Shown here one piece after another: positions 59,760-61,511 of a DNA stretch of 64,000 nucleotides (the stretch's first letter is position 1; each line of letters begins with the position of its first letter). The notes under the pieces were generated by a model that did not search any database, had not been told where the DNA came from, and was given only the letters and a program-made list of their open reading frames with translations. Made by a program: the position numbers and the translations under genes. Source of the stretch: a virus; the IMG/VR virus record IMGVR_UViG_3300023180_000036, positions 18,463 through 82,462 of that record, one strand, 5' to 3'.

Positions 59760-60072
59760 TCACGTTAATGAAATCTTTAAAGATAATATAAATATGATGG
59801 TACCATGGTATCTTATGGCTTCATATGCTTATTATGTAGAAGATGATCCGATCTTAACTGATAATTTTTTCGATAATATGGGTAAAAGAATCCTAGAAAA
59901 CTGGGAAAAAATTACACATTTTCATAAACACTATATCAGTAAAGACGAATTAAAAGCTGGAAGTTTTCTGGGAAAATATCCTAGCAGAGTTTCAGATTCT
60001 GTTAATGCTTTAAGAAAATATGGTTTTATTAAGAAAGAAAAGAAAGAAGTAACACTGGAAGATTTTTTCTAA
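59746..60072 (+). CDS. stand-alone protein resembling NAD-dependent DNA ligase domain Ia
   Basis: SYAYYVEDDPILTDNFFD resembles LigA YYxxDxPxxxDxxYD. Confidence 0.5.
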   Translation: MILDNHVNEIFKDNINMMVPWYLMASYAYYVEDDPILTDNFFDNMGKRILENWEKITHFHKHYISKDELKAGSFLGKYPSRVSDSVNALRKYGFIKKEKKEVTLEDFF

Positions 60073-60264
60073 ATGAAACAAGAAATAATTAAATTTAAAA
60101 GTACAAATTATTATCGAAATAAAAAAAGAAATGAACTTGTACGAAAAAGATTAAAAATAAAATACCAGAAAAGGGCAGGCACTTATCTTCTGGATCCTAT
60201 GAATAAGAAAGAAGATAAAAACACACTTGAATTTAATATTGATTCTGATTATATTATGATGTAA
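60073..60264 (+). CDS. basic hypothetical protein
   Basis: Packed ORF, K/R-rich. Confidence 0.45.
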   Translation: MKQEIIKFKSTNYYRNKKRNELVRKRLKIKYQKRAGTYLLDPMNKKEDKNTLEFNIDSDYIMM

Positions 60265-60334
60265 CATATTTACTACAATAAAAAATGATTAATAAATCTT
60301 ATAGTTATTAATCATCATATAATACTATATAATC

Positions 60335-60614
60335 TGTAGACGTTATAAAGACTATATGGACCTGGGGGCGGCACCCAGCAGCTCCACCATAAACACTTGA
60401 TAGAGGACGCTCGAAAATTCTGGGAAGCAGATAGGGAAGTAGCTACCTGATTCTGTGGAGAAATTCAAGTGTTTATGATGGGGCTGAAATAGGATCGACA
60501 TGTATTCTAGTTTACAAAATACAAATGCAAACGATAACTTTGCACCATCTGGTTACGCACTAGCTGCATAACACAGGGGGTTGGCCACTTACCTAGCAAC
60601 AGAAATAGTGGCAC
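60335..60614 (+). ncRNA. ssrA: circularly permuted two-piece tmRNA (alphaproteobacterial type); tag (A)ANDNFAPSGYALAA
   Basis: Acceptor piece: GGAC + T-arm CTGGG-GGCGGCA-CCCAG + CAGCTCC-A-CCA (ends 60389). Coding piece starts GGGGCTGAAATAGGATCGAC at 60480 and pairs with it including G3-U70. Tag frame 60527-60571. 3' ACCTAGCAACAGAA motif. TATAAT at 60328-60333. Outer boundaries approximate. Confidence 0.93.
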
Positions 60615-60649
60615 ATTAATTTTAAAAATTCATTAAGGGAATAAAACAA

Positions 60650-61030
60650 ATGAAAATCGCAGCACTCACAGTAGCAGCAACAATTGCAGCAACATCAGTA
60701 TCAGCAATGGACCTTGGTTCAACAGGTCTTTCACTTAACACAGAAGTAGACGCATCATGGGATCTTGATGCTGATACGAATAACCTTCTCGTTACTCTTG
60801 AGCCAGAGTTGGGTTACAGCATTGTTGGTGTGAGCCTTACGGCTGGTATGGATCTTAATGTTTATCAGAATGAAGAATTTGTTCTTGGTGATCAGTTTGA
60901 CGCTCTTTCAATTGACTTTGGTGCGTCTTATCAAATTATGGAAGGCCTTTCCGCTTATGGTGAAACAACCTGGGACGTAGAAGCTAGTGAACTCGAAGCA
61001 TCAAAAGTTGGTGTTACTTTTTCATTCTAA
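60650..61030 (+). CDS. secreted outer-membrane beta-barrel / porin-like protein
   Basis: Signal peptide MKIAALTVAATIAATSVSA, alternating amphipathic strands, C-terminal KVGVTFSF. Confidence 0.72.
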   Translation: MKIAALTVAATIAATSVSAMDLGSTGLSLNTEVDASWDLDADTNNLLVTLEPELGYSIVGVSLTAGMDLNVYQNEEFVLGDQFDALSIDFGASYQIMEGLSAYGETTWDVEASELEASKVGVTFSF

Positions 61031-61046
61031 TAAAATGAATTTCGAG

Positions 61047-61054
61047 TATAAATA
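61047..61054 (+). promoter_or_regulatory. T4-type late promoter
   Basis: Intergenic TATAAATA. Confidence 0.7.
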
Positions 61055-61085
61055 GTATTATCGGGTTGTTACGAAATAAACACGT

Positions 61086-61112
61086 GAGGGGCCACGGTTA
61101 GCCCCTCTTTTT
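61086..61112 (+). terminator. intrinsic terminator
   Basis: GAGGGGC-8 nt-GCCCCTC + TTTTT. Confidence 0.8.
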
Positions 61113-61133
61113 CGTTTAATGGAGGTAGCACTG

Positions 61134-61511
61134 ATGAAAAAGTTTATACTTATTTTAGCAGCTGCGATAGGCTTATCCATTCCAGCTTATGCGCAGCAGA
61201 CGGATCAATCTAGTGGCAGGGGAGTTTTAATTCAAGCTCCTTGTGATTATTATCCTGTCGTATTTGAAGTTCAGAGACAAAGTAACGAAAGATTGATGTT
61301 TGTAGGTAACGGAGCAATAAAGGAATCCACTAGTAACAAATACTTTAGAGGAGCTGTTGCTGTTTGGTGGAATATGGAAACAGAAAATGCTTCTATAACA
61401 ATTCAGTTTCCGGATGGTATGATATGTCTACTTTCTCCTGCTGGAAAATTTCAACCTTGGACTGGGTCACAGCCTTGGGAACCACCAAAAGAAAAGAAAC
61501 AAAGTTTCTAA
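61134..61511 (+). CDS. secreted hypothetical protein
   Basis: GGAGG RBS; signal peptide MKKFILILAAAIGLSIPAYA; two Cys. Confidence 0.75.
   Translation: MKKFILILAAAIGLSIPAYAQQTDQSSGRGVLIQAPCDYYPVVFEVQRQSNERLMFVGNGAIKESTSNKYFRGAVAVWWNMETENASITIQFPDGMICLLSPAGKFQPWTGSQPWEPPKEKKQSF

Follow-up and report, generated by a model that had tools for sequence, protein, structure and literature searches.

A circularly permuted tmRNA gene of compact form in an uncultured T4-like phage

Introduction

What is a gene for transfer-messenger RNA (tmRNA), with its two halves in reversed order, doing in the DNA of a virus, and does it work? The question is raised by a locus in a 64,000-base stretch (hereafter the window, meaning the whole stretch analysed), which is bases 18463-82462 of the 82,462-base IMG/VR virus record IMGVR_UViG_3300023180_000036. 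A preliminary description, made from the letters, had proposed a permuted two-piece tmRNA with the tag ANDNFAPSGYALAA at this locus, and the proposal is borne out: the Rfam models RF01849 and RF04321 both match above their cut-offs, and the locus is a complete, phage-borne, circularly permuted tmRNA gene of the alpha type. Furthermore, I consider it likely, at a probability of roughly 0.8, that this is a functional two-piece tmRNA gene maintained in a lineage of aquatic T4-like myophages. Judged from its sequence, the gene belongs to a compact subclass in which helix 2 is short and pseudoknot 1 (PK1) is absent.

The two-piece tmRNA of Caulobacter crescentus and the Alphaproteobacteria was reportedly described by Keiler, Shapiro and Williams in 2000. 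The preliminary description had held a permuted tmRNA in a phage to be much less familiar than a one-piece one; however, Buchholz et al. (2022) describe a two-piece ssrA in the phage Melnitz, and their ARAGORN survey found tmRNA in 402 of 18,146 phage genomes, with 133 unique structures and 53 two-piece cases, 50 of them aquatic (PMC9004378). The same authors report permuted tmRNA in 17 of 47 Melnitz-like contigs (PMC9004378). The 2025 release of the tmRNA database holds 79 bacteriophage sequences, its main search being ARAGORN plus BLASTN candidates (PMC11915505). Thus the two-piece phage tmRNA is already published, and the compact form without PK1 is a structural variant of which I found no published description: in a limited search of the open-access literature, none of the papers found dealt with a PK1-less tmRNA that was permuted or came from a phage.

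Identification of the gene

An Rfam cmscan of the whole window placed RF01849 (alpha_tmRNA) at 60295-60615 on the + strand with 84.6 bits (cut-off 50, E 1.8e-21), a check that the preliminary description had itself recommended, and RF04321 (tmRNA_permuted) at 60332-60571, also on the + strand, with 77.5 bits (cut-off 47, E 4e-13). No other Rfam family exceeded its curated cut-off in the 64 kb; two further rows within 59900-61100, ARRPOF (E 5.2) and mt-tmRNA (E 0.84), stand at chance level and were rejected.

The tRNA-like domain is complete, with a 7-bp acceptor stem bearing G3.U70, a discriminator A, CCA, and a 5-bp T stem closing a 7-nt loop. The permutation is plain to see, the 3' acceptor half lying upstream of the 5' half: the CCA ends at 60389, G1 stands at 60480, and 90 nt of spacer separate them. 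Helix 2 joins the two pieces through P2b and P2a, and the tag frame runs from an alanine resume codon to a stop, with a hydrophobic ...AA end. All the elements listed in the preliminary description (the T arm, the acceptor strands, G3-U70, the CAUGUA/UAUAUG pairing, the tag and the 3' helix) are found at the positions it gave. Three more, absent from its list, emerged in the analysis: another inter-piece helix (P2b), the 10-bp helix that closes the spacer, and the 4-bp stem of the 3' pseudoknot. The folding z-score is -5.91 for the acceptor plus spacer (60379-60486, -42 kcal/mol) and -3.65 for the whole precursor, and the minimum free energy (MFE) fold recovers the inter-piece, spacer-closing and pseudoknot-region helices.

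ARAGORN, the other program proposed as a check, made no tmRNA call on the gene at default settings; at -ps70 it called the window tag alongside two false calls. A blastn search of deposited phage genomes gave no match at E 1e-5 and, at E <= 1, 12 records of which none reached 80% query cover, the weak matches being parts of the tRNA-like domain in Melnitz and in phages of roseobacters, rhizobia and Rhodobacter.

Conservation of structure and tag

Relatives were collected from IMG/VR in two scans. The first, with a conserved 5' motif, found at least 119 loci; among the matches listed, 110 had an upstream acceptor partner pairing at 7/7 positions together with NCCA, 3 paired at 6/7, and 6 had no partner within 300 nt. 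Of the 121 rows among the matches listed, 106 could be given a tag; in these matches the leader, from G1 to the resume codon, was 80-88 nt long in 67 rows, and 9 rows, that of the window among them, had leaders of 47-48 nt. The second scan, aimed at the short leader, found at least 116 loci and, among the matches listed, 104 complete genes (77 of them distinct) with leaders of 46-49 nt and spacers of 9-232 nt. The compact pattern was also present at no fewer than 120 loci in an unfiltered metagenome collection. From 117 candidates, removal of 13 that were incomplete or one base out of register and merging of 27 duplicates left the 77 sequences of alignment A1; these were picked for a 7-pair acceptor stem, and the acceptor helix is thus not independent evidence.

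Over these 77 distinct sequences, 82.3% of cells are paired, versus 68.1% in shuffles and 37-49% with slid partners, and the covariation score is 0.387 versus 0.157 in shuffles; none of 500 shuffles reached either value. The support is spread over the helices. In P2b, whose 5' strand GUAGAC in the acceptor piece (60336-60341, + strand as for all parts of the gene) pairs with 60510-15, every cell is paired, and in 3 of 6 pairs both bases change (UA 41 / AU 36; GC 58 / AU 15; GC 75 / AU 2). P2a has as its 5' strand, also in the acceptor piece, AGA, a bulged C and UAUAUG (60349-60358), pairing with 60499-60508; within it lies the inter-piece pairing of UAUAUG (60353-58) with CAUGUA (60499-504). 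The three P2a pairs beside the T arm are GC in all 77, UA 39 / AU 38, and CG 58 / AU 18, and the outer pairs are weak, so that 69.1% of the helix is paired overall. The 3' strands of P2a (60499-504 and 60506-08) and of P2b (60510-15), together 60499-60515, rest on these pair counts and on the MFE fold.

The T arm consists of the stem CUGGG (60362-66) / CCCAG (60374-78) and the loop GGCGGCA. The stem is paired in all 77 relatives and 4 of its 5 pairs change on both sides; the loop occurs in no other of the 77, 36 of which have GGCAGTA and 34 GGCGGTA. Next come the 3' acceptor strand CAGCUCC (60379-85), the discriminator A (60386), which is A in 77/77, and the encoded CCA (60387-89). The 90-nt spacer at 60390-60479, which is presumably excised, is closed by a 10-bp helix (60390-99 / 60466-75) that prolongs the acceptor stem; this helix is 77-81% paired in the relatives, and all 10 pairs change on both sides. 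The coding piece opens at 60480-60498 with the acceptor strand GGGGCUG (60480-86; 7 pairs, including G3.U70) and a D-loop analogue, AAAUAGGAUCGA; a G.U pair stands at acceptor position 3 in 77/77, a count taken from sequences chosen for their 7 acceptor pairs.

Between P2b and the resume codon lies an A-rich single strand of 11 nt (60516-60526), the usual site of PK1, and the positions -6 to -1 before the resume codon are conserved, reading NNAAAU in most of the 77. The tag frame at 60527-60571 encodes ANDNFAPSGYALAA from GCA 60527 to GCA 60568, followed by UAA at 60569-71. Against 40 distinct 14-codon relatives, the window tag shows 151 synonymous and 55 non-synonymous differences; codons 1-3, 5, 6 and 12-14 change synonymously throughout, the non-synonymous changes fall mostly in codons 7-9, and the LAA end is invariant. 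This substitution pattern shows the tag frame to be under selection at the level of protein. Among the 104 genes, the tag ANDNFAPSGFALAA occurs 30 times and the window tag 14 times.

Downstream of the tag, a 4-bp stem of the 3' pseudoknot (60578-81 / 60591-94) is 97.4% paired, with 2 of 4 pairs changing on both sides. The 3' hairpin GCCACU (60584-89) / AGUGGC (60607-12) encloses ACCUAGCAACAGAA, and its loop ends in ...AGCAACAGAA. This hairpin is 42.5% paired in alignment A1, a figure that reflects misalignment by MAFFT, and hence single-sequence folds were used: folded gene by gene (MFE), 65 of 73 distinct genes form at least 5 pairs around ACAGRA, with 36 different stems.

Several compact genes depart from this picture. 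Four distinct ones (L140, L192, L201 and L230) have a 31-residue tag, ANDNVAQPKFMKKRNTFARKVGFTKG(M/T)ALAA, and no ACAGRA 3' motif in the 150 nt examined. Another (L131, 498-752) has a 10-nt duplication in its T arm, seen as an insertion in A1, and may be damaged. The spacers vary as well. The window spacer has no ATG frame of 15 codons or more and one TTG frame (17 codons) with no Shine-Dalgarno-like motif. ATG frames of at least 15 codons occur in the spacers of 46 of the 104 compact genes, 23 of them with a Shine-Dalgarno-like motif, and many spacers hold open reading frames (ORFs) of 27-68 codons that start some 19-20 nt into the spacer after a GGAG-like motif. Several unrelated peptide families recur among these (L120/L182, L139/L173/L200/L231, L205/L212, L083/L237, L184/L196 and L224/L229), and the 142-nt spacer of Melnitz (L125) has a 54-codon ATG frame in the same position.

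Just 5' of the acceptor piece stand two TATAAT-like boxes (60318-23 and 60328-33), which are candidate -10 elements that may serve as promoters. A promoter consensus scan found 9 promoter-like sites in the window versus 6.1 expected, those near the gene being weaker sites at 60227-60260. The window contains 16 copies of the candidate late promoter TATAAATA versus 15.75 expected, and none of these directly precedes the tmRNA. Across the compact genes, a TAAATA box is present in 56 of the 77, 9-12 nt 5' of the fixed index used for the first helix strand, so that the mature 5' end of the acceptor piece may coincide with the start of transcription. The box often lies inside TATAATATAAATA; the window carries TATATAAT instead.

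A compact form without PK1

In the window gene 47 nt lead from G1 to the resume codon, versus 82 in Melnitz, 75 in HTVC008M and 79 in Mosig, which leaves no room for PK1; 11 nt separate P2b from the resume codon, and the Rfam alignment deletes the PK1 columns of the model. The three isolates are themselves recognised by RF01849, with 106.7 bits for Melnitz (where the gene is annotated as SsrA), 83.8 for HTVC008M and 67.6 for Mosig, all above the cut-off; a fourth phage, C48C1, gave no RF01849 match. In the RefSeq entry of HTVC008M (L128, NC_020484.1, 145103-145414) the tmRNA is unannotated, and the Rfam match begins within the end of the hypothetical coding sequence I899_gp194.

The window gene resembles those of Melnitz, HTVC008M and Mosig in being an alpha-type permuted tmRNA of a T4-like aquatic myophage, with a spacer helix that extends the acceptor stem, a tag ending in ...ALAA and a 3' hairpin with ...AACAGAA. 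It differs in its shorter, PK1-less leader and in escaping ARAGORN, which calls all three of the others. Two further differences concern Melnitz, where a glutamine riboswitch directly follows the tmRNA (the window has none at E <= 10 in 59900-61100) and the gene downstream is a late-transcription coactivator, whereas the window has an ORF resembling an outer-membrane protein.

With Caulobacter crescentus the window gene shares the order of acceptor piece, spacer and coding piece, the GGC-type T loop, G3.U70, an ANDN...AA tag and a 3' pseudoknot with an ACCU-type strand, and of the Rfam models the alphaproteobacterial one gives it the highest score. However, the coding chain of the bacterium is 213 nt long, versus about 135 nt in the phage-borne gene, and keeps the PK1 that the latter lacks (PMC1168896). 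The tmRNAs of mycobacteriophages of the Bxz1 group and of Bacillus phage G are likewise phage-encoded and presumably dependent on host SmpB, but they are one-piece, non-permuted and from phages of Gram-positive hosts (Hudson et al., 2014; PMC4131195). PK1 is a usual feature of tmRNA rather than a strictly defining one: two sequences that lack helices 3 and 4 have been noted, one from Oenococcus oeni and a partial one from the Pavlova lutheri chloroplast (Burks et al., PMC1168896).

Could such a form have been passed over? ARAGORN called 1 of the 104 compact genes and gave it a wrong tag, so that 0/104 were correct, versus 71 of 111 called among the other loci of the first scan and 3/3 for the cultured isolates Melnitz, HTVC008M and Mosig. 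Thus, published counts based on ARAGORN probably leave the compact class out.

Genomic context

The source of the window is an uncultured T4-like myophage from salt marsh, and the public runs that contain the stretch are salt-marsh metagenomes. The record is 42% complete by CheckV; every ORF of at least 120 aa in the window lies on the + strand, and the gene order is T4-like. Matches to PHROGs include the large terminase, tail sheath, portal, major head protein and a gp43-type DNA polymerase, as well as a gp46-like nuclease subunit and a DnaB/gp41-like helicase. The head (capsid) protein is 66.9% identical to that of C48C1, 61.8% to those of Melnitz and HTVC008M and 58.9% to that of Mosig, all four of which are classified as Kyanoviridae. 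The 82-kb record contains no integrase and, complete to 42% as it is, no match to SmpB (PF01668) at E <= 1, in keeping with the preliminary description of a lytic-type phage that lacks smpB in the window. The record also has four tRNA genes (Arg-TCT, Pro-TGG, Asn-GTT and Met-CAT; L239, G000:C1, 15098-15686), about 3 kb upstream of the window.

Relatives of the gene are found in similar surroundings. The gp41-like helicase and the ORF at 59.4-59.8 kb recur at the loci L105, L087, L097, L098 and L046, among others. Of the at least 120 metagenome loci, 85 share ORFs with the window phage outside the tmRNA, a lower bound because the real downstream gene (60626-61027) was left out of the comparison, and 32 more share ORFs with the tmRNA loci of IMG/VR; among the matches listed, 3 contigs of 1.0-1.2 kb are too short to judge. 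ORFs in this comparison were taken from stop to stop in six frames, which inflates their numbers, and presence or absence alone was used.

Does any cell carry the same gene? The back-translated tag pattern ANDNFAP(WSN)GYA, searched in one genome per species for 185,579 species, occurs in a single contig, L130 (JBEAPG010000217.1), which is 4.3 kb long, is binned in a Bacteroidota metagenome-assembled genome and carries an alpha-type permuted tmRNA with a long leader of the PK1 type. Its ORFs match tmRNA loci of IMG/VR, and it is therefore probably a mis-binned phage contig. A cellular source of the compact tmRNA thus left no sign in this tag-pattern search and among the neighbour genes, a comparison made without a structural-model search. 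Comparing tags, which the preliminary description had suggested for identifying the host, leads no further than this one contig with its virus-like genes. The alpha type had also been taken to point to the class of the host, yet the ssrA of Melnitz groups with alphaproteobacterial sequences and its host, OM43, is not an alphaproteobacterium, being placed in the Gammaproteobacteria (PMC9004378).

Right after the tmRNA stands a 126-aa ORF (60650-61030) with a hydrophobic N-terminus resembling a signal peptide and a weak match to the Pfam family Phage_OMP (PF24653, E 9.3e-4, 19.9 bits, below the cut-off of 27). Among the matches listed, 49 of 120 metagenome loci with a compact tmRNA have a homologue of it. 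The motif TATAAATA follows at 61047-54, and then a GC-rich, terminator-like hairpin (61086-61107) with a T run.

Transcription

Four metatranscriptome runs were compared over a 4-kb stretch at 90% likeness or more, as contigs, which cannot show RNA ends. Summed depth in the bin 60510-60643, which represents the coding piece, was 403.7 in run X15, 85.5 in X16 and 54.4 in X20, the highest bin of each of these runs, and 10.6 in X17, where it was not the highest; the bins upstream had depths of 0-5. Three contigs are identical to the window, at 60316-60466 (depth 2), 60210-60360 (2.3) and 60576-61088 (23.4). A further contig, at 60577-61310 (19.7), differs in two letters and, like 60576-61088, runs through the 126-aa ORF. 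The deepest contigs differ from the window at 60553, 60555, 60556, 60559 and 60565, which amounts to three synonymous codons and one change of Tyr to Phe.

The contig ends at 60576/60577, seen in three runs, and the uncovered parts were considered as RNA ends and rejected, coinciding as they do with sequence divergence among relatives; joints from 60396/60400 to 60469 were likewise rejected as splicing and come from relatives with other spacers. The RNA contigs are compatible with transcription of the gene; they demonstrate neither processing nor libraries free of DNA.

Discussion

How would the gene work? A single precursor would be transcribed from the A/T-rich -10-like boxes just upstream, and its acceptor stem, as folding and covariation show, runs on into a 10-13-bp helix closing the 90-nt spacer. 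As in Caulobacter, host RNase P would cut before G60480 and 3' trimming would halt at the encoded CCA at 60389, so that the acceptor piece would measure about 54 nt and the coding piece about 135 nt; covariation suggests that the acceptor stem, P2a and P2b hold the two together. Host alanyl-tRNA synthetase would charge the RNA via G3.U70 and A73, and host SmpB and EF-Tu would deliver it to ribosomes stalled on broken mRNA. Translation is expected to resume at GCA 60527 and to append ANDNFAPSGYALAA, the selection seen on the frame being joined here to a predicted tagging, and the ALAA end would, by analogy, route the product to host proteases. In this scheme P2b, 11 nt before the resume codon, would occupy the place that PK1 holds elsewhere. 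The likely benefit to the phage would be ribosomes kept free during infection while mRNA is degraded; the preliminary description had also suggested that the gene may counter RNA-cleaving defences.

Several points weigh against reading the locus as a functional tmRNA gene. Processing, charging and tagging of the window RNA are predictions from sequence and analogy. The deepest RNA contigs, with the variant tag ...SGFALAA, come from close relatives and not demonstrably from the window phage, and the exact contigs of the acceptor piece, at depths of 2-2.3 and with the spacer included, could be precursor or carried-over DNA. The T loop deviates at a position where 70 of the 77 relatives have U. 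By analogy, the absence of PK1 could impair function, because tagging in E. coli needs PK1 unless a stable hairpin replaces it (PMC3968760). Lastly, the record is 42% complete, so the phage could have an smpB of its own.

It is this dependence of E. coli tagging on PK1 or a stable hairpin in its stead that invites the idea of a decoy, an RNA that binds host SmpB or enters stalled ribosomes, tags poorly, and damps or redirects the trans-translation of the host; the tmRNA of mycobacteriophage DS6A, which has the tRNA-like domain alone, has been discussed as an inhibitor of this sort (PMC4131195, PMC11915505). A pure decoy, however, needs neither a tag nor the region just before it, and here the tag frame is constrained (151 synonymous versus 55 non-synonymous differences over the 40 distinct variants, with LAA invariant) and the region from -6 to -1 is conserved, so I regard a decoy as unlikely. 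Nor does it seem probable that the tag serves chiefly to break down incomplete host proteins and recycle their amino acids into virions, rather than to release ribosomes. Buchholz et al. proposed this for Melnitz (PMC9004378), and the ALAA end does resemble known protease degrons (E. coli tag data, PMC3968760); yet the same mechanism yields ribosome rescue too, and the data do not separate the two.

The preliminary description had named a fragment of host chromosome or an attachment-site remnant as the finding that would overturn it. Since tmRNA genes are common integration sites and fragments of them occur in prophages (PMC9004378), a captured piece with no role in the phage is a natural suspicion, but several observations speak against it: both pieces are complete and their helices covary, the 82 kb hold no integrase and have their ORFs of at least 120 aa on one strand in T4-like order, the gene is syntenic in many phage contigs, and the tag is in no cellular genome of the 185,579 species representatives, bar the one phage-like contig. 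I therefore consider this explanation extremely improbable, and a functional gene kept by the phages themselves the preferred reading.

A broader proposal is that the compact genes form a phage-specific class of mini-tmRNA (two pieces totalling about 190 nt, helix 2 short, PK1 lacking) that is active in trans-translation with host SmpB, has no cellular counterpart, and has been missed by published phage counts because ARAGORN does not detect the compact form. I lean towards this proposal, if by a little. If true, the class would supply evidence from nature that a tmRNA can do without PK1, and reports so far would considerably understate how common tmRNAs are in aquatic T4-like phages.

Possession of an alpha-type tmRNA does not reveal which class of host a phage infects, and annotation pipelines and surveys that rely on ARAGORN will undercount phage tmRNAs. 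The compact form is abundant in aquatic viral DNA: there are at least 116 loci in viral records and at least 120 in metagenomes, almost all of them in phage surroundings. It is a natural minimal tmRNA, and it suggests that trans-translation can spare PK1 and much of helix 2.

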